From: Octopus vulgaris
Lineage: Eukaryota
NCBI GenBank assembly: GCA_951406725.2
Contig: OX597843.1
Location: 17,236,001-17,300,000, forward strand
Direction of reading: 5' to 3'
Length of the DNA: 64,000 nucleotides
Every line of letters begins with the position of its first letter. Position 1 is the first letter of the stretch. The translations under genes were made by a program, and so were the position numbers. This document shows, piece by piece, positions 12,801-53,231 of the stretch. The notes under the pieces were generated by a model. It was not told the DNA's origin and made no database searches. It worked only from the letters and a program-made list of their open reading frames with translations.

Positions 12801-15800
12801 TTTGAGATAATCCATGATTAATTCAAAATGTGAATAAATAAGCGTTACACTTGACAGAACCTTTTAGCATTTGAACCAGCCAAATCAGGCCTGATCTGAC
12901 CTTTCACACCTACCTTACAATGTCATTCTAAAAATAAACAATCATCATCATCATCATTGTTGTCATTGTTTAACGTCCGCTTTCCATGCTATCATGGGTT
13001 GGATGGTTTGACTGAGGACTGGCAAGCCAGTAGGATGCACCAGGCTCCAATCTGATCCGGCAAGGTGTCTACAGCTGGATGCCCTTTCTAATGCCAACCA
13101 CTCCGAGGGTGTAGTGAGTGCTTTTTACGTGCCACCGGCATGGGAGCCAGCCAGGGGGCACTGGTCTCACCGCATCATCACAATCTTGAAATTACAAGAT
13201 AATGAGTGACTAATTCAACACGATGTGAATAAATAAGAATTCCATTTGACAGAGTAATCTGAACGTTAAAGGGGTCACCCATTAGCTTTTAAACCAGAGC
13301 CCAAATATTCTACCTGTTTTCTGTTCAAAATGGCCAGGTCCAGTCTTTTATACCTACCCTATAATGTCATTCTAAAAATAAGTAATCACATTATTTTGAT
13401 ATAATGCATGACTAATTCAAAACAACATGAATAGATAAGAATTCTATTTGACAGAGGAATTTGAATGCTAAAGGGTTAGTGACCCTAATGGAAACATATT
13501 AAGGATTTCTTTATCTCGTAACGCCAGAGAGCACCAGAGAAACAGAAACACACTCACACACATGTTGAGGTGTCAGCACAAGTATGACTGCGTGGTTATA
13601 GAGTTTGCCTTATAACCATGTGGCCTTGAGTTCTATTTCATTGAGGGGTAACTTGGGCAAAGGCCTTCTACGGTAGCTTGAGGTTGACCAATGCTTTGAG
13701 TGGAAATGGTAGGCCAAAATGGTGTAGCAACCCATCATGTATATACCACCATAGTCATCATCATTAAACATCCATATTCCATAAAACCAAAGCGCCACAA
13801 AAAAAGCACTGGTGCTGGTACTATGTAAAAAGCATTGGTGCCGGTACCATGTAAAAAGCACTGGTGCCAGTACCACGTAAAAAGCATTGGTGCTGGTACT
13901 ATGTAAAAAGCACTGGTGCCGGTGCCACATAAAAAGCATTGGTACTGGTACCACGTAAAAAAGCCTTGGTGCCGGTACCATGTAAAAAGCATTGGTGCTG
14001 GTGCCACATAAAAAGCACTGGTGCTGGTGCCACATAAAAAGCACCCAGTACAGTCTGTAAAGTGGTTGGCATAAAGAAGGGCATCCAGCCGTAGAAACCA
14101 TGCCACAGCAGACTGGAACCTGGTGTGACCCGCTGACCTTGCCAGCTCCTGTCAAGCCATCTAACCCATGCCAGCATGGAGAACAGACTGTAATCAATGA
14201 TGATAGTAATTCCATGCTGACATGCGTTGGATTGTTTGACAAGAATCCGACAGGTTCAAAGACTGTATCCAGCTCCAGCGTCTGCTTTGGCATGGTTTCC
14301 ATGACTGGATGTCCTTGCTATTACTAACCACTTTACAGAGTGTACTGGGTGCCTTTTTTTTTTATGGCACCAGCACTAGCGAGGTTAGCACGCAGCTTGC
14401 ACAACTAACGTTACAAACGCACGACCATATACAAAGATATTCAACCAGAAACAAACACATGGCCAAATGCAAATGCAATCACACAAACGTACACAAAGTT
14501 AGTTGCATACGCATACACAATCACATACAAGCACAACCACACATACAGCCATACATAAAGACATACAATCACACACCAAGACACAAACACAAACACACAC
14601 ACACACCAGGACACAAACACACACACACACCAGGACACAAACACACACACACCAGGACACAAACACACACACGCCAGGACACAAACACACACACACCAGG
14701 ACACAAACACACACACACCAGGAACAAACACACACACACCAGGACACAAACACACACACACCAGGACACAAACACACACACGCCAGGACACAAACACACA
14801 CAGACCAGGACACAAACACACACATGCCAGGACACAAACACACACACACCAGGACACAAACACACACACACGCAGGACACAAACACACACACACCAGGAC
14901 ACAAACACACACACACCAGGACACAAACACACACACACAAGGAACAAACACACACACACCAGGACACAAACACACACACACGCAGGACACAAACACACAC
15001 ACACACGCAGGACACAAACACACACACACACGCAGGACACAAACACACACACACCAGGACACAAACACACACACACGCAGGACACAAACACACAAACACA
15101 CACACACGCAGGACACAAACACACACACACCAGGACACAAACACACACACACCAGGACACAAACACACACACACGCAGGACACAAACACACACACACGCA
15201 GGACACAAACACACACATGCCAGGACACAAACACACACATGCCAGGACACAAACACACACATGCCAGGACACAAACACACACACACCAGGACACAAACAC
15301 ACACACACACACCAGGACACAAACACACACACACCAGGACACAAACACACACATGCCAGGACACAAACACACACACGCAGGACACAAACACACACATGCC
15401 AGGACACAAACACACACACGCAGGACACAAACACACACATGCCAGGACACAAACACACACATGCCAGGACACAAACACACACACACCAGGACACAAACAC
15501 ACACACACACACCAGGACACAAACACACACATGCCAGGACACAAACACACACACACCAGGACACAAACACACACACACACCAGGACACAAACACACACAT
15601 GCCAGGACACAAACACACACACACCAGGACACAAACACACACACACCAGGACACAAACACACACACACCAGGACACAAACACACACACACACCAGGACAC
15701 AAACACACACACACCAGGAACAAACACACACACACCAGGACACAAACACACACACACACAGGACACAAACACACACATGCCAGGACACAAACACACACAC

Positions 15801-18800
15801 ACCAGGACACAAACACACACACACCAGGACACAAACACACACACACACACACCAGGACACAAACACACACATGCCAGGACACAAACACACACACACCAGG
15901 ACACAAACACACACACACACCAGGACACAAACACACACACACAGGACACACACACACACACACACACCAGGACACAAACACACACACACCAGGACACAAA
16001 CACACACACACCAGGACACAAACACACACACACCAGGACACAAACACACACACACCAGGAACAAACACACACACACCAGGACACAAACACACACACACAC
16101 CAGGACACAAACACACACATGCCAGGACACAAACACACACACACCAGGACACAAACACACACACACCAGGACACAAACACACACACACCAGGACACAAAC
16201 ACACACACACACCAGGACACAAACACACACACACCAGGACACAAACACACACACACGCAGGACACAAACACACACACACCAGGACACAAACACACACACA
16301 CGCAGGACACAAACACACACACACGCAGGACACAAACACACACACGCCAGGACACAAACACACACACACCAGGACACAAACACACACACACCAGGACACA
16401 AACACACACACACACCAGGACACAAACACACACACACGCATGACACAAACACACACACACCAGGACACAAACACACACACACACCAGGACACAAACACAC
16501 ACACACCAGGACACAAACACACACACACCAGGACACAAACACACACACGCAGGACACAAACACACACACACCAGGACACAAACACACACACACCAGGACA
16601 CAAACACACACACAAACCAGGACACAAACACACACACACCAGGACACAAACACACACAAACCAGGAACAAACACACACACACCAGGACACAAACACACAC
16701 AAACCAGGAACAAACACACACACACCAGGACACAAACACACACACAAACCAGGACACAAACACACACACACCAGGACACAAACACACACACACCAGGACA
16801 CAAACACACACAAACCAGGACACAAACACACACAAACCAGGACACAAACACACACACACACCAGGACACAAACACACACACACCAGGAACAAACACACAC
16901 ACACCAGGACACAAACACACACACACCAGGACACAAACACACACACACGCAGGACACAAACACACACAAACCAGGACACAAACACACACACACCAGGACA
17001 CAAACACACACACACGCAGGACACAAACACACACAAACCAGGACACAAACACACACACACCAGGACACAAACACACACACACCAGGACACAAACACACAC
17101 AAACCAGGACACAAACACACACACACACCAAGACACAAACACACACACACCAGGAACAAACACACACACACCACACAAACACACACACACCAGGACACAA
17201 ACACACACACACGCAGGACACAAACACACACAAACCAGGACACAAACACACACACACCAGGACACAAACACACACACACCAGGAACAAACACACACACAC
17301 CAGGACACAAACACACACACACCAGGACACAAACACACACACACGCAGGACACAAACACACACAAACCAGGAACAAACACACACACACCAGGACACAAAC
17401 ACACACAAACCAGGAACAAACACACACACACCAGGACACAAACACACACACACACCAGGACACAAACACACACACACGCAGGACACAAACACACACACAC
17501 CAGGACACAAACACACACAAACCAGGACACAAACACACACACACACCAGGACACAAACACACACACACACCAGGACACAAACACACACACACGCAGGACA
17601 CAAACACACACACACCAGGACACAAACACACACAAACCAGGAACAAACACACACACACACCGGGACACAAACACACACACACCAGGACACAAACACACAC
17701 ACCAGGACACAAACACACACAAACCAGGAACAAACACACACACCAGGACACAAACACACACACACACCAGGACACAAACACACACACACGCAGGACACAA
17801 ACACACACACACCAGGACACAAACACACACACACCAGGACACAAACACACACACACACCAGGACACAAACACACACAAACCAGGAACAAACACACACACA
17901 CCAGGACACAAACACACACAAACCAGGAACAAACACACACACACACCAGGACACAAACACACACACACCAGGACACAAACACACACACACACCAGGACAC
18001 AAACACACACACACCAGGACACAAACACACACACACCAGGACACAAACACACACAAACCAGGAACAAACACACACACACCAGGACACAAACACACACACA
18101 CACCAGGACACAAACACACACACACGCAGGACACAAACACACACAAACCAGGAACAAACACACACACACCAGGACACAAACACACACACACACCAGGACA
18201 CAAACACACACACACGCAGGACACAAACACACACACACCAGGACACAAACACACACAAACCAGGACACAAACACACACACACACCAGGACACAAACACAC
18301 ACAAACCAGGAACAAACACACACACACCAGGACACAAACACACACACACCAGGACACAAACACACACACACGCAGGACACAAACACACACACACGCAGGA
18401 CACAAACACACACAAACCAGGAACAAACACACACACACCAGGACACAAACACACACACACACCAGGAACAAACACACACACACGCAGGACACAAACACAC
18501 ACACACACACCAGGACACAAACACACACACACCAGGACACAAACACACACACACCAGGACACAAACACACACACACACCAGGAACAAACACACACACACC
18601 AGGACACAAACACACACACACCAGGAACAAACACACACACACCAGGACACAAACACACACACACCAGGAACAAACACACACACACCAGGACACAAACACA
18701 CACACACCAGGACACAAACACACACACACCAGGAACAAACACACACACACCAGGACACAAACACACACACACCAGGACACAAACACACACACACGCAGGA

Positions 18801-21800
18801 CACAAACACACACAAACCAGGAACAAACACACACACACCAGGACACAAACACACACACACCAGGAACAAACACACACACACCAGGAACAAACACACACAC
18901 ACCAGGACACAAACACACACACACCAGGACACAAACACACACAAACCAGGAACAAACACACACACACCAGGACACAAACACACACACACCAGGACACAAA
19001 CACACACAAACCAGGAACAAACACACACACACCAGGAACAAACACACACACACCAGGACACAAACACACACACACCAGGACACAAACACACACAAACCAG
19101 GAACAAACACACACACACCAGGACACAAACACACACACACCAGGACACAAACACACACAAACCAGGAACAAACACACACACACCAGGAACAAACACACAC
19201 ACACCAGGACACAAACACACACACACCAGGACACAAACACACACACACCAGGACACAAACACACACACACGCAGGACACAAACACACACACACGCAGGAC
19301 ACAAACACACACACACGCAGGACACAAACACACACACACGCAGGACACAAACACACACACACCAGGACACAAACACACACACACCAGGACACAAACACAC
19401 ACACACACACGCAGGACACAAACACACACACACGCAGGACACAAACACACACACACGCAGGACACAAACACACACACACCAGGACACAAACACACACACA
19501 CCAGGACACAAACACACACACACACCAGGACACAAACACACGCAGGACACAAACACACACACACACCAGGACACAAACACACACACACACCAGGACACAA
19601 ACACACACACACCAGGAACAAACACACACACACCGGGACACAAACACACACACACCAGGACACAAACACACACACACCAGGACACAAACACACACACACG
19701 CAGGACACAAACACACACACACCAGGACACAAACACACACACACCAGGACACAAACACACACACACACACGCAGGACACAAACACACACACACGCAGGAC
19801 ACAAACACACACACACGCAGGACACAAACACACACACACCAGGACACAAACACACACACACCAGGACACAAACACACACACACACACGCAGGACACAAAC
19901 ACACACATGCCAGGACACAAACACACACACACCAGGACACAAACACACACACACACACGCAGGACACAAACACACACACACGCAGGACACAAACACACAC
20001 ACACGCAGGACACAAACACACACACACCAGGACACAAACACACACACACCAGGACACAAACACACACACACGCAGGACACAAACACACACATGCCAGGAC
20101 ACAAACACACACAAACCAGGAACAAACACACACACACACCAGGACACAAACACACACACACACACCAGGACACAAACACACACACACGCAGGACACAAAC
20201 ACACACACACACACCAGGACACAAACACACACACACCAGGACACAAACACACACACACCAGGACACAAACACACACACACCAGGACACAAACACACACAT
20301 GCCAGGACACAAACACACACACACACCAGGACACAAACACACACACACACCAGGACACAAACACACACACACACACCAGGACACAAACACACACACACGC
20401 AGGACACAAACACACACACACACACCAGGACACAAACACACACACACCAGGACACAAACACACACACACCAGGACACAAACACACACACACCAGGACACA
20501 AACACACACACACGCAGGACACAAACACACACATGCCAGGACACAAACACACACACACACCAGGACACAAACACACACACACACCAGGACACAAACACAC
20601 ACACACACACCAGGACACAAACACACACACACGCAGGACACAAACACACACACACACACCAGGACACAAACACACACACACGCAGGACACAAACACACAC
20701 ACACACACCAGGACACAAACACACACACACACCAGGACACAAACACACACACACACACCAGGACACAAACACACACACACGCAGGACACAAACACACACA
20801 TGCCAGGACACAAACACACACACACAGGACACAAACACACACACACCAGGACACAAACACACACACACCAGGACACAAACACACACACACCAGGACACAA
20901 ACACACACATGCCAGGACACAAACACACACACACACACCAGGACACAAACACACACACACCAGGACACAAACACACACACACCAGGACACAAACACACAC
21001 ACATGCCAGGACACAAACACACACACCAGGACACAAACACACACACACCAGGACACAAACACACACACACACCAGGACACAAACACACACACACCAGGAC
21101 ACAAACACACACATGCCAGGACACAAACACACACACACACACCAGGACACAAACACACACACACGCAGGACACAAACACACACACACACCAGGACACAAA
21201 CACACACACACACCAGGACACAAACACACACACATGCCAGGACACAAACACACACACAGAAGGACACAAACACACACACACACACCAGGACACAAACACA
21301 CACACACCAGGACACAAACACACACACACCAGGACACAAACACACACACACACCAGGACACAAACACACACACACACCAGGACACAAACACACACACACA
21401 CCTGGACACAAACACACACACACCAGGACACAAACACACACACACCAGGACACAAACACAAACACACGCAGGACACAAACACACACACATGCCAGGACAC
21501 ACACACACACACCAGGACACAAACACACACACACCAGGACACAAACACACACACACACACCAGGACACAAACACACACACACGCAGGACACAAACACACA
21601 CACACACCAGGACACAAACACACACACACGCAGGACACAAACACACATACACACACCAGGACACAAACACACACACACGCAGGACACAAACACACACACA
21701 CCAGGAACAAACACACACACACGCAGGACACAAACACACACACACGCAGGACACAAACACACACCAGGACACAAACACACACACACCAGGAACAAACACA

Positions 21801-24800
21801 CACACACCAGGACACAAACACACACACACCAGGACACACACACACACACCAGGACACAAACACACACACACACAGGACAGGACACAAACACACACACACC
21901 AGGACACAAACACACACACACCAGGACACAAACATACAACCACATACCAGAATATAACCACACACACATGCACACAAACGCACACACACAGCCACAAACC
22001 TACACACCCATACAGACTCACACAACCACATGGAGACAGATACACAAATACGCAACCACACCCAATCACAGCCACACCTAAACAGTCACGCGCACACACA
22101 TGCAACCCTACATAAACACATAACCACACATAAACACAGTCACATACACAACGACACAGCCGCAAACACACAACCCTACATAAACACATACAAACACATA
22201 ACCACATGTAAACGCAGTCACACACATACACAAACACACCTGTACACACACACACACATACACACACATACAGCCACAAACAGACAGACAGTCACAAACC
22301 AACACACAAACACACCTGTACACACACACACACATACACACACATACAGCCACAAACAGACAGGCAGTCACAAACCAACACACAAACACACCTGTACACA
22401 CACACACATACACACACATACAGCCACAAACAGACAGGCAGTCACAAACCAACACAGAAACACACCTGTACACACACACACATACACACACATACAGCCA
22501 CAAACAGACAGACAGTCACAAACCAACACACAAACACACCTGTACACACACACACATACACACACATACAGCCACAAACAGACAGGCAGTCACAAACCAA
22601 CACACAAACACACCTGTACACACACACACATACACACACATACAGCCACAAACAGACAGGCAGTCACAAACCAACACACAAACACACCTGTACACACACA
22701 CACATACACACACATACAGCCACAAACAGACAGGCAGTCACAAACCAACACACAAACACACCTGTACACACACACACATACACACACATACAGCCACAAA
22801 CAGACAGGCAGTCACAAACCAACACACAAACACACCTGTACACACACACACATACACACACATACAGCCACAAACAGACAGGCAGTCACAAACCAACACA
22901 CAAACACACCTGTACACACACACACATACACACACATACAGCCACAAACAGACAGGCAGTCACAAACCAACACACAAACACACCTGTACACACACACACA
23001 TACACACACATACAGCCACAAACAGACAGGCAGTCACAAACCAACACACAAACACACCTGTACACACACATACATATACACACATACAGCCACAAACAGA
23101 CAGACAGTCACAAACCAACACACAAACACACCTGTACACACACATACAGCCACAAACAGACAGACAGTCACAAACCAACACACAAACACACCTGTACACA
23201 CACATACATATACACACATACAGCCACAAACAGACAGACAGTCACAAACCAACACACAAACACACCTGTACACACACACACACATACACACACATACAGC
23301 CACAAACAGACAGACAGTCACAAACCAACACACAAACACACCTGTACACACACACACACATACACACACATACAGCCACAAACAGACAGGCAGTCACAAA
23401 CCAACACACAAACACACCTGTACACACACATACATATACACACATACAGCCACAAACAGACAGACAGTCACAAACCAACACACAAACACACCTGTACACA
23501 CACACACACATACACACACATACAGCCACAAACAGACAGACAGTCACAAACCAACACACAAACACACCTGTACACACACACACATACACACACATACAGC
23601 CACAAACAGACAGACAGTCACAAACCAACACACAAACACACCTGTACACACACACACATACACACACATACAGCCACAAACAGACAGACAGTCACAAACC
23701 AACACACAAACACACCTGTACACACACACACACATACACACACATACAGCCACAAACAGACAGACAGTCACAAACCAACACACAAACACACCTGTACACA
23801 CACATACATATACACACATACAGCCACAAACAGACAGACAGTCACAAACCAACACACAAACACACCTGTACACACACATACATATACACACATACAGCCA
23901 CAAACAGACAGACAGTCACAAACCAACACACAAACACACCTGTACACACACACACATACACACACACATACAGCCACAAACAGACAGGCAGTCACAAACC
24001 AACACACAAACACACCTGTACACACACATACATATACACACATACAGCCACAAACAAACAGACAGTCACAAACCAACACACAAACACACCTGTACACACA
24101 CATACATATACACACACACACAGCCACAAACAAACAGACAGTCACAAACCAACACACAAACACACCTGTACACACACACACACATACACACACATACAGC
24201 CACAAACAGACAGACAGTCACAAACCAACACAAACACACCTGTACACACACATACATATACACACATACAGCCACAAACAGACAGACAGTCACAAACCAA
24301 CACACAAACACACCTGTACACACACATACATATACACACATACAGCCACAAACAGACAGACAGTCACAAACCAACACACAAACACACCTGTACACACACA
24401 CACACATACACACACATACAGCCACAAACAGACAGACAGTCACAAACCAACACACAAACACACCTGTACACACACATACATATACACACACACACAGCCA
24501 CAAACAAACAGACAGACCAACACACACAGAAGCAAACACAGAATTAAAAATGGAGAAAGCATTCGAAGAAGTTGATGGAGATGTCTACTCACCTGGTCGA
24601 TAAAAGAGAATCTAGCCTTTAGGTAGAGGTTGACCCCTACCTTGGCAGGGTACAGCATATCGGGGTTCTGCAGGGCACACATCTCTGCAGCAGACTGTAA
24701 TGAACAAAAGAGAAGCGGGCAAGGTCACGAAAAATATATTAATGGCTATGTGAAAGGTTGGAAGCTGGCAGAATCATTAGCTTGCTGGACAAAATGCCTA

Positions 24801-48575: not shown

Positions 48576-51500
48576 TCATTGTTTAACGTCCGGTTTCCAT
48601 GCTGGCATGGGTTGGACTGTTTGACTGAGGACTGGCGAACCAGATGGTTGCACCAGGCTCCAATCTGATCTGGCAGAGTTTCTACAGCTGGATGCCCTTC
48701 CTAATGCCAACCACTCTGAGAGTGTAGTGGGTGCTTTTACATGCCGCCGGCACGAGGGCCAGTCAGGCGGTACTGGCAACATCTATGCTCAAATGGTGTT
48801 TTTACGTGTCACCTGCACAGGAGCCAGTCTAGGGGCACTGGCAACGCCCTCACTCGAAAGTTATTTTTCACATACCACCGGCACAGAGGCCAGTCGATGC
48901 GACACTGGTATCGATCACGCTCGAATGGTGCTTTTGATGTGCCACCAGCATGGGGGCCAGTCAGCAGCCCTGGCAATGATCACGCTCGGATGGTGCTCTT
49001 AGTGCTCCACTAGCACAGATTCCAGTCAGGTGGTGCTGTCATCGAATTTGATTTTGATTTCACTTGCCTCAACAGGTCTTCGCAAGCAGAGTTTAGTGTC
49101 CAATGAGGGAAAGGCATGCATAAGTGGGCTATTTCGCCCCTGGCATAGTCCATGAGATTATGGTCTCACTTGGCTTGCCGGGTCTTCTCAAGCACAGCAT
49201 ATTTCCAAAAGTCTCGGTCTCTAGTCACTTCCATGGTAAAGCCTAAAGTTAGAAGGTCGTGATTCACCACTTCATCCCAGGTCTTCCTGGGTCTACTCCT
49301 TCCACAGTTTCACAACCGCTAGGGTTTGACACTTTTTCACACAGCTATCCTCATCCATTCTCACCACATGACCATACCAGCGCAGTCATCTCTCTTGCAC
49401 ACCACATCTGATGCTTCTTAGGTCCAACTTTTCTCTCAAGGCACTTACACTCTGTCAAGTATGTACACTGACATTACACATCCATCGGATCATACTGGCT
49501 TCATTCCTTGCGAGCTTACACATGTCCTCAGTAGTCTCATACCTTAGGAATGAGAACTCAGGTTTGAAATTTCCCCAAGACACCTGATGAAGGCAGGAGG
49601 GTATATCAGCAACAAAGATGAGGACAAACATCCTTCAAATGTAAATAATAAAAATGATGCAAAATAAAAATAAAAAACAAAAAGACACACTTACATCAGA
49701 GATTGGTGAAGATTGGGGAATTGTTGGCGCAAGAGGGACGAGCGTCTTTCAATTGTGACTTGCTGTAGCGTGGACACCTGGTTACATGTAAATTACACAG
49801 TCAGACAGGAATAAGTAATCGTAATGGTTTCAAATTTTGGCACAGGGCCAAGGCTAGTAATTTTGAGGGGAGGGGGATGAATAAATTACATTGACTCCAG
49901 CGGCGAGCTGGCAGAAATGTTAGCACGCCGGGCAAAATGCGTAGCCGTATTTCGTCTGCCGTTGCGTTCTGAGTTCAAATTCCGCCGAGGTCGGCTTTGC
50001 CTTTCATCCTTTCGGGGTCGATTATATAAGTACCAGTTACGCACTGGGGTCGATTTAATCGACTTAATCCGTTTGTCCTCTCTGTGTTTAGCCTCTGGTG
50101 GGTAGTAAAGAAATAGGTATTTCGTCTGCCACTACGTTCTGAGTTCAAATTCCGCTGAGGTCAACTTTGCCTTTCATCCTTTCGGGGTCGATTAAATAAG
50201 TACCAGTTACACACTGGGGTCGATATAATCGACTTAATCCGTTTGTCTGTCCTTGTTTGTCCTCTCTGTGTTTAGCCCCTTGTGGGTAGTAAAGAAATAA
50301 GTATTTCATCTGGTACTCGTTTTATTGACCTTGAAACAATAAAAGATAAGGTTGACCTCGGTGGAATTTGAACTCAGAATGTAAAAACAGATGAAATACT
50401 GGTAAGCATTTTGCCTGGTATGCTAACCATTCTGCCAGCTGACTACCATCATAACATACTGAGCAGAATAAATGATAAAATATGTAAAATCAACAAAAAA
50501 AAAACCAAGAAATGTTGTCAAATTTACCTGCTCTATAGATCCCATCGCCAATAACACCTTCAGCTGTCCATGTTGGTAGTTGGTGAGTGGGTCCACAATA
50601 GGCATATAGCCATCATGGGCTACAATCGGGTACTGTGGAGAGAGGAAATATATAAAAGAGACATAGGTGAAACAAAATATATTTTGTTGAACCAATGATC
50701 ATGGATTAACTGTCTATATAAAATGTGTGTGTGTGTGTGTGGTTGAAATTTACAAAAAACAAAAGACAAAGATAGGTGAACGAACAACAAGCAGGTGTAT
50801 CAGTTTGACACTCAGGGAGAATGGAAAAGTCTTTGACGTTTCGAGCCTATGCTCTTTGACAGAAAGAGATGAGTGGGAAAAAAATGGAGAGAGAGAGAGA
50901 GAAAAACAGTCGTTATTGAAAATGTGCTTTCTTGCAGCTCTAAGGGTTTTTAACTCTTATTTCTAGCAATATAGGTACTACTCAGCACACTCAGTAACAA
51001 TTAGTGACAAGTGAAAATTTCCTTCTCGGTTTTAAATTGTGTATACCTGCCTTCGTTGTTATATATAATATATATATATATATATATATCATCGTTTAGC
51101 ATCCGCTTTCCATGCTAGCATGGGTTGGACGGTTCAACTGGTGTCTGGGAAGCCCGAAGGCTGCGCCAGGCCCAGTCTGATCTGGCAGTGTTTCTACGGC
51201 TGGATGCCCTTCATAACGCCAATCACTCCGTGAGTGTAGTGGGTGCTTTTTATGTGCCACCGGCACAGGTGCCAAACGAGGCTAGCAAACGGCCACGATC
51301 GGATGGTGGTTTTTACATGCCACAGGCACGGGGGCCAGTCGAGGCAATGCTGGCAACAGCCACATTCAGATGGTGCTTTTTACGTGCCACCGGCATGGGG
51401 GCCAGACGAGGCTGGCAAACGGCCACGATCGGATGGTGCTTTTTACGTGCCACCGGCACAGGGGCCAGGCCAGGCTGGCAACGGCCACAATTGGATGGTG

Positions 51501-53231
51501 CATTTTACGTGCCACCGGCACGGAGGCCGGTCAGGGCGGTGCTGGCAACGGCCACATTCGGATGGTTCTCTAACGTACCATCGGCACTGGTATCACAGCT
51601 ACAATTTCCACTTATGTTGATCGATTTCGATTTTGAAATGAAAATCAAAATCGAAATCGATCAACATCAGTGGAAATTGTAGCTGTGATACCATAAATGA
51701 TTAGGTAAATATATTCAATAAGAATATTATATACTGAATTTATATTAAGTGCTCCATTGTATAAAAAAATATTAATACTATTAAAGGATTTATATATTTA
51801 ATATGAGCGACATATACATATATTTTTTAATAATATATTATTATTATTATTAATAGAAATATTAAAATTACTAAGTCTCTCTAAAGGAGATTACGGCAGC
51901 GTTACTGGAAATTAATAGTTATCGCCATACTTATATGGCAGTCTTATAAATATATGACTAAAGCTGTCGCTGATTAGCTCCAAGAGGCCACCGCCTCAAG
52001 CTAGCTATTTGACACACAACCTGCGTCCATTATAAACCTTTGAACAGGGAGGTCAGCCGCTTCATCCTGCTAGTCAGACAGCTGCAGACATGTTTCAGGG
52101 TATTTGCCCTTTATCAATGCAGCGTAGTCAGACCCAGCAGGTGTCGCTACTGACTGTCTCTGTTCGAAGAATCTATTTACCTAGTTTCAGTGGAATACAT
52201 CCACTTGTTTTCAATAATAGAAATATTAAAATTACTAAGTCTCTCTACGCTGCATTGATAAAGGGCAAATACCCTGAAACATGTCTGCAGCTGTCTGACT
52301 AGCAGGATGAAGCGGCTGACCTCCCCTGTTCAAAGGTTTATAATGGACGCAGGTTGTGAGTCAAATAGCTAGCTTGAGGCGGTGGCCTCTTGGAGCTAAT
52401 CAGCGACAGCTTTAGTCTTATAATTTATAAGACTGCCATATAAGTATGGCGATAACTATTAATTATTATTAATATAAGGAAATCAATACCGAATTCTTCA
52501 CAAAGATATACCTATATGAAAGACCTTATGTATTAAAAATATATATAAATAAATAAATATAAAAATATAAATATAATGTATAAAATAAATTTGAAAGTTT
52601 AAAAGTTTTGAATTGAGTTTTTAAGCATCTTATGATCGTTTCGCAGAAGTGCTGTCCCTATAATGAAATCCTATATTGATAAGCATTTATAGACAACCCT
52701 TCTGCTCTTCAGAGATATAAAATATAAATATTGTATAATATATCGAATGATATTTTTAAAAATTTGGATTAAAATTGTAAAATACACACACACACAGATA
52801 TATACACATTGAGAATTTGGGGAGATTTCTGAAGAAATGAAATAAAAATTAAAAAAACAGTGATGTAAAGTATAAACAACTTACTGGAGACTTCAGCAAT
52901 GTCGTCACAATTCTTTGGTTACGAAGCGAGAGGTAGAATTGATGGAGGCTCAGCTTCACCACACCAATTAACTGCCATATATAATAATAATAATAATAAG
53001 AATAATAATAATAATAATAATAATCATCATCATCATCATCATCGTTTAGCATCCGCTTTCCATGCTAGCATGGGTTGGACGGTTCAACTGGGGTCTGGGA
53101 AGCCAGGAGGCTGCACCAGGCCCAGTCTGATCTGGCAATGTTTCTACGATCAAACTGGGCCTGGTGCAGCCTTCTGGCTTCCCAGACCCCAGTTAATAAT
53201 AATAATAATAATAATAACAATAACGATAATG

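Follow-up and report, generated by a model that had tools for sequence, protein, structure and literature searches.

We conclude with considerable confidence that the two inverted hammerhead ribozymes found in a 64,000-nucleotide stretch of Octopus vulgaris DNA (hereafter the window) belong to a retrozyme insertion that carries an inherited U3–A8 core, and that its head-to-head arms are likely the product of a Penelope-like reverse transcriptase (RT) priming on both cut strands of the target. Judged from sequence, the locus, one of hundreds of copies, represents a single insertion of a non-coding retrozyme family and adds a member to a known anatomy; in the open literature we found no title on an octopus retrozyme.

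The whole insertion measures 614 nt and is made of unit sequence only (Table 1). Its inverted arms occupy 51910–52133 and 52239–52464 (224 and 226 nt) and are 97% identical; a sequence-only reading of the window had recognized both arms correctly, save that its left-arm start, 51909, lay one base too far. Outside the junction the arms differ by two substitutions and two single-base indels, none of them in the ribozyme, and they are more alike than in 98% of arm comparisons. The identity of the two arms reflects just one insertion event. The 33-bp direct repeat reported at the same time is indeed exact at both places (51851–51883 and 52215–52247) and cannot be extended further, but it is no separate signal: the two copies lie 364 nt apart, the minus-strand stretch 52247 to 51851 comprises one 364-nt unit and a further 33 nt, and the repeat is the overlap of a copy longer than its unit. 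As a candidate target duplication the repeat was ruled out, being element sequence that occurs in other copies. The long arm ends at B and the short arm at A, the two fixed ends of the family described below, inside a 13-nt duplication that overlaps both ends, and the last 5 nt of the left target copy, common to the long-arm end, may have served as priming microhomology.

Table 1. Coordinates of the insertion in the window, with example loci of the ORF1-only units elsewhere in the genome.
Feature	Position	Strand	Remarks
Left copy of 13-nt target-site duplication, (ATT)n-rich target	51843..51855	.	Low-complexity, hence weaker than the unique-sequence duplications of other copies
Long arm, 397 nt (364-nt retrozyme unit + 33 nt)	51851..52247	-	
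Long-arm 3' end, the family's fixed end B	51851	-	Unit position 236 from ribozyme cut
33-nt terminal redundancy, copy at long-arm 3' end	51851..51883	-	Part of the element, shared by other copies
~60-nt 'tail' between fixed ends A and B	51851..51909	-	Long arm only
Type I hammerhead, U3–A8 core, palindromic minimal stem III	52081..52123	-	Descriptor scan; predicted cut after 52087 (C17)
Remainder of unit upstream of ribozyme	52134..52214	-	Predicted pairing with ribozyme-downstream sequence as long stem I extension (circular fold)
33-nt terminal redundancy, copy at long-arm 5' end	52215..52247	-	
Head-to-head arm junction	52239..52247	.	Microhomology 3 nt exact, 7/9 nt imperfect
Short arm, 5'-truncated, terminating at fixed end A	52248..52464	+	Unit position 177
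Type I hammerhead, identical to the minus-strand one	52249..52291	+	U3 = 52255, A8 = 52260; predicted cut after 52285 (C17)
Right copy of 13-nt target-site duplication	52462..52474	.	First 3 nt common to short-arm end
ORF1-only example loci L152, L153, L177, L180, L190	C2:52.93 Mb, C1:121.03 Mb, C5:112.31 Mb, C19:0.59 Mb		

The insertion lies in a repeat-rich neighbourhood. A near-perfect 49-bp hairpin at 51588–51693, its right half high-copy in the sequencing runs examined, adjoins a 63-bp tandem repeat (51242–51587), and at 53038–53194 a 111-bp repeat, also present at 51088–51198, is folded back into a 47-bp inverted repeat bordered by (AAT)n/(CAT)n runs. Farther away, positions 14595–22007 hold a CA-rich 22-bp satellite of 328 copies with extreme strand skew.

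A both-strand descriptor scan of the 64-kb window returned exactly two matches, identical to each other, at 52249 on the plus strand and 52123 on the minus strand, in full agreement with the sequence-only reading. Each combines a 6-bp stem I, the core UUGAUAA, a 4-bp stem II with a 6-nt loop, GAA, the palindrome ACAUGU and a GUC site, and the descriptor recovers the three stems, conserved core, Watson–Crick 3–8 pair, A15.1–U16.1 and H17 of a type I hammerhead. An Rfam search of the window at E values up to 1 reported no hammerhead family, the matches below threshold being microRNAs only, driven by hairpins. The expectation that consensus searches would miss the motif is thus true of Rfam, where the cause could be either the core change or the minimal stem III.

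In the whole genome (2.8 Gb, 227 contigs), a relaxed core pattern gave 668 matches vs. 0 for the reversed control, which places the motif far beyond chance; the 100 listed of these comprise 98 with U3 and two with C3, and no G8. When positions 3 and 8 were left free, 168 matches were obtained, and among the 100 listed we counted 98 U3–A8, one A3–A8 and one U3–G8, which makes U3–A8 the consensus of the family. C3–G8 was absent from these 100 of 168. Loop III is palindromic in 91 of the 100 listed for the relaxed pattern (73 ACAUGU, 12 ACUAGU and 6 ACGCGU, counted by eye); each alternative loop needs two changes, and both preserve the palindrome. One stem I pair changes from G–C to U–A in two subfamilies, and covariation between subfamilies extends to stem II and the loop-III palindrome.

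The same genome contains a sister retrozyme family with a C3–G8 core, mostly CCGAUGA (U4C), a homologous stem II and about 75% likeness over part of the unit; a pattern with C3 and G8 fixed finds 252 matches to it. Given this family and the U3–A8 consensus of the first, the 3–8 double change is compensatory, as had been proposed. Across 10 subfamily representatives the pair is U–A in six, C–G in four and unpaired in none, but because the representatives are related sequences the swap counts as one event, not ten, and the change is a single ancestral one inherited by all copies. Selection on the ribozyme, likewise proposed at the outset, can be affirmed for the family, which looks selected in that paired positions (3–8, both stems and the loop-III palindrome) have changed in step from one subfamily to another. 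The U3–A8 core itself had been presented as notable; it is already known, however, and does not make a new ribozyme. Perreault et al. 2011 (PMC3088659) found natural hammerheads with the U3–A8 covariation, and other U3–A8 ribozymes are reported active there, and about 1,300 minimal U3–A8 hammerheads occur in Penelope elements of Schistosoma (Cervera and de la Pena 2014, PMC4209133).

With the arm as query, the genome search yielded 2497 first-look candidates, the best 40 at 96–100% identity. In other loci tandem units are spaced by 364–365 nt and copies reach 835 nt in one set of loci and 905 nt in another; two ribozymes stand in tandem at L007, L011, L160 and L161, and tandem units were found in at least three subfamilies. 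Loci were chosen by likeness to the window copy and an intact ribozyme, a choice biased towards young copies, and 124 raw insertions became 108 once places recorded more than once had been collapsed (within the one-armed set, L099/L100 and L110/L111 have the look of local duplications). These 108 distinct insertions comprise 158 segments, 45 of which are longer than one unit. The unit has no linked ORF. Compared with shuffled sequences, its RNA has a much more stable predicted fold (z = -5.1), a long stem tipped by the ribozyme; folding two molecules together did not recover the active dimer structure. Assembled contigs of runs presumed to be RNA cover the unit, although such contigs cannot show strand, ends or circles; among them no empty allele of the window locus was seen. 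One contig that looked different upstream of the ribozyme turned out to hold just one truncated copy next to flanking host DNA. As in non-LTR retrozymes, a non-coding tandem unit in the range of ~150–400 nt carries one type I hammerhead, and copies are dispersed, with target duplications of more than 4 bp and no LTR-type ends. The two ribozymes on one strand that mark an active dimer are missing from the window copy, which has one per strand; this concerns that copy only, not the family.

The repeat might alternatively be the pseudo-LTR of an autonomous Penelope-like element, its copies being 5'-truncated stubs with no independent small RNA. Hammerheads of Penelope elements are mostly found in truncated solo or inverted copies (PMC4209133, PMC8557442), and the ends, tail and targets seen here are Penelope-like in the fraction of the family covered. 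However, the sequence upstream of the ribozyme is the same 364-nt unit and not an ORF, 45 of the 158 segments exceed one unit, tandem units recur across subfamilies, and no RT-linked copy was present among the loci examined. We consider such an origin of the copies very unlikely. A MITE or foldback DNA transposon was also ruled out, as 61 of the 108 insertions are one-armed and both arm lengths and duplications vary.

The ends of the copies bear on insertion by a Penelope-like enzyme. With the ribozyme cut as the origin of numbering, 3' ends fall mainly into two zones of the unit, 167–178 (A) and 227–246 (B), with peaks at 176 and 237, about 60 nt apart. One-armed insertions (n = 61) end at A in 30 cases, at B in 25 and elsewhere in 6, while the two-armed insertions (n = 43 of 108) divide into 32 A+B, 1 A+A, 1 B+B and 9 with an unclassified end. 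The pairing of A with B in 32 of 34 classifiable two-armed insertions has a binomial p = 3.5e-8, a test from which the 9 with an unclassified end and 4 complex insertions were excluded. In 20 further loci of another subfamily, six of seven simple classifiable two-armed insertions were again A+B, the other being B+B. Target duplications of at least 8 nt (9–15 nt) flank 16 of 35 insertions outside microsatellites vs. 40 of 1354 shuffled flank pairs. (TA)n adjoins 79 of the 135 A or B ends. The family has the fixed 3' ends, one-sided tail, inverted 5'-truncated arm and AT-rich or microsatellite target of a Penelope-mobilised element. For comparison, Penelope elements are marked by pseudo-LTRs in inverted orientation, a tail restricted to one end and 8–10-bp duplications (PMC3846280, PMC8557442). 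In vitro, a lizard Penelope element cleaves and extends both strands from two RT start sites, which are internal to the RNA and bound the tail, and the protein is a predicted dimer (PMC11167929).

How the second arm was made is the point on which the rotifer study differs, explaining inverted pseudo-LTRs by self-priming on antisense RNA (PMC3846280). By that model the inverted arm would come from fold-back self-priming of one cDNA or of antisense RNA, and 14 of the 32 A+B pairs, the window locus included, are nested and hence compatible with it; in several pairs (L035, L048, L109) the overlapping parts of the arms are identical. Yet in the other 18 neither arm is contained in the other, so that neither can be a copy of its partner, which favours priming from both cut strands. 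Junctions are rarely palindromic, and self-priming predicts neither strict A+B pairing nor target microhomology at both outer ends. It accordingly appears a rather improbable source of the second arm. Arm junctions overlap by microhomology in 20 of 32 cases. Arms from the same insertion resemble each other slightly more than arms taken from separate insertions do (p about 0.05; median rank 0.39, with 17 of 32 under the median), a difference too weak to establish a single RNA template.

Several observations on the arms may be added. Identical inversion junctions occur in unrelated insertions, namely L022, L028 and L040 and also the window locus and L013 (unit position 16 with 282; 204 with 318), and these recurrent junctions fall where the unit RNA is self-complementary. 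In the 32 A+B insertions the summed arm lengths always exceed one unit (minimum 378 nt), the shortest arms being 84 and 93 nt; with ascertainment not controlled, these sums could reflect copying round a circle.

Under priming from both cut strands, a tandem source locus would be transcribed, and two ribozymes would pair via the ACAUGU palindrome and cut out a monomer, which probably circularises. A Penelope-type RT–GIY-YIG protein would then nick AT-rich DNA on both strands, 9–15 nt apart, one cDNA would begin at A and its counterpart at B, and their ends would be joined at microhomology. Tandem copies are equally expected from linear multimeric RNA. A fuller version invokes an asymmetric Penelope-type RT dimer in vivo that always starts one strand from A and the other from B, continues beyond one unit by following an RNA circle (or two palindrome-held RNAs) and leaves cDNAs that are joined at microhomology; we hold its chances to be evenly balanced. 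LINE-1 twin priming likewise produces a 5' inversion, junction microhomology and one target duplication, but its second primer sits at a variable internal place and its arms do not overlap, whereas here the sites are fixed and the arm overlap is wide.

Only 1 of 158 5' ends lies within 3 nt of the ribozyme cut; with no copy boundary at that site, cleavage leaves no genomic trace. It could be argued that the ribozyme is vestigial, the U3–A8 core being an inherited low-activity form kept in a protein-binding RNA fold, with cleavage having no part in mobilisation, and the scarcity of ends at the cut fits this. Against it, the catalytic positions and the 3–8 pair are kept across families ~75% alike, and the double changes in loop III keep the palindrome, as dimer cleavage requires. 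Reports that lean towards a vestigial ribozyme are the poor in vitro cleavage of minimal Penelope hammerheads (PMC4209133), the catalytic mutants of the lizard element that left insertion in vitro unaffected (PMC11167929) and, in a 2026 preprint, 8 of 9 frog retrozyme dimers that did not cleave (10.64898/2026.07.22.740005). We regard a vestigial ribozyme as unlikely, though it deserves more weight than the other alternatives considered here.

As to the source of the enzyme, the genome harbours a young autonomous family, many of its copies intact, with RT and GIY-YIG domains in a 781-aa ORF. The endonuclease is preceded by a CX4CXXC motif, which marks the Neptune or Nematis clades (PMC8557442). 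A second open frame precedes this ORF (L154–L159, L268–L297). At its 3' end the family has a hammerhead-like motif (608 exact matches) with a U3–A8 core, an ACAUGU loop and an AT-rich weak stem I; it inserts in (TA)n, its two ends are ~33 nt apart, 26 of the 32 ends in the count, which includes duplicates, belong to one type, and the single two-armed insertion seen whole is A+B. It has the ribozyme core in common with the retrozyme unit but no longer shared sequence, and its tail is ~33 vs. ~60 nt. This family is the best candidate mobiliser. No autonomous element with the window repeat was found in 50 GIY-YIG loci and 6 wider views, of 6136 first-look GIY-YIG candidates, nor was an RT-linked element present upstream of 20 copies of the repeat; the window insertion does not have the RT–GIY-YIG ORF between pseudo-LTRs of an autonomous Penelope-like element. 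Two RT–endonuclease fragments 1.5 kb upstream of copies are independent insertions with their own ends.

The sister family (L233–L247, L176, L183, L189, L191) has a longer stem III, ends ~60 nt apart and, at one locus, a 364-nt spacing. An ORF of 350–480 aa flanked by copies was considered as a coding retrozyme or autonomous partner and rejected, being that of ORF1-only units inserted at one unit position. These units are ~1.7 kb long, encode 350–480 aa with a CCHC knuckle, ZCCHC3-like, and show no RT; the protein gave no Pfam match and no homologue, its look-alikes being CCHC/ZCCHC3-like. They lie ~35 nt upstream of the ribozyme core with 11–18-nt duplications, stack in tandem (13 exact junctions) and likewise target the sister family. 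A few are 5'-truncated inside the ORF, without an upstream unit (L175, L209), and head-to-tail ORF1-only arrays at L184–L188 (457 aa, several near-identical copies, ~1.8-kb spacing) have no hammerhead nearby. Three loci (L153, L173, L178) share one ORF1-unit junction, a hint that the composite as such was mobilised again.

For the window copy, one ribozyme per strand means that no monomer can be cut from it, and read-through RNA of the insertion is predicted to fold into a ~220-bp duplex burying the hammerhead. The inverted duplication consequently cannot help the ribozyme; it is a by-product of insertion, and the copy itself is probably a dead end. That it might instead be a locus-specific, host-selected ribozyme switch, with the inverted arm regulating cleavage, draws on the perfect ribozyme and the long hairpin and on nothing beyond them. 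This two-armed arrangement, called the family's commonest insertion outcome, is found in 43 of the 108 insertions, and the copy, which sits among repeats, has dozens of dispersed counterparts at 97% likeness, making a switch extremely improbable.

Several known systems resemble the family. Metazoan non-LTR retrozymes, derived from Penelope pseudo-LTRs in the 2026 preprint by Li, Clavereau and Pollet (10.64898/2026.07.22.740005), share with it a non-coding tandem unit (350–390 nt in mussel, 364 nt here), a type I hammerhead in which stem I has 6 bp, stem II has 4 bp and stem III is palindromic, a highly self-paired RNA, long target duplications and Penelope elements in the same genome (Cervera and de la Pena 2020, PMC7229834). 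The octopus family is unlike them in its U3–A8 consensus core, in its mostly sub-dimeric, two-armed copies with fixed ends, and in that its cleavage and circles are predictions. With the variants of Perreault et al. 2011 (PMC3088659) and with Schistosoma Cercyon (PMC4209133) it shares the 3–8 covariation. The ~1,300 Cercyon matches in S. mansoni include opposite-strand pairs 100–700 bp apart, as here, whereas a ribozyme of canonical size (6 bp/4 bp), a non-autonomous tandem unit and a C3–G8 sister family in the genome set the octopus family apart. Endonuclease-bearing Penelope-like elements have the same head-to-head arms, one-arm tail, AT-rich targets, target duplications of 8–10 bp or longer and two RT start sites (PMC3846280, PMC8557442, PMC11167929). 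Set against the descriptions in PMC3846280 and PMC8557442, the tail here is ~60 vs. 30–40 nt and there is no ORF, and unlike the self-priming idea published in the former our statistics favour priming from both strands. Searching the open literature, we found no paper uniting Penelope-like elements, twin priming, inverted copies and pLTR.

Cumulatively, strict-consensus searches undercount hammerheads, given at least 668 matches here and no example detected by Rfam in the window, and the sister families, U3–A8 and C3–G8 with U4C, form a natural ready-made set on which cleavage could be assayed. The strict pairing of A with B, together with the target duplications and the arms that are not nested, constitutes a quantitative genomic test of Penelope-type inverted one-tailed insertion and of animal retrozyme mobilisation. 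If an asymmetric RT dimer is indeed responsible, a single twin-priming mechanism would account for the one-sided tail, the inverted arm and the duplicated target of Penelope elements, and would replace the antisense self-priming model.
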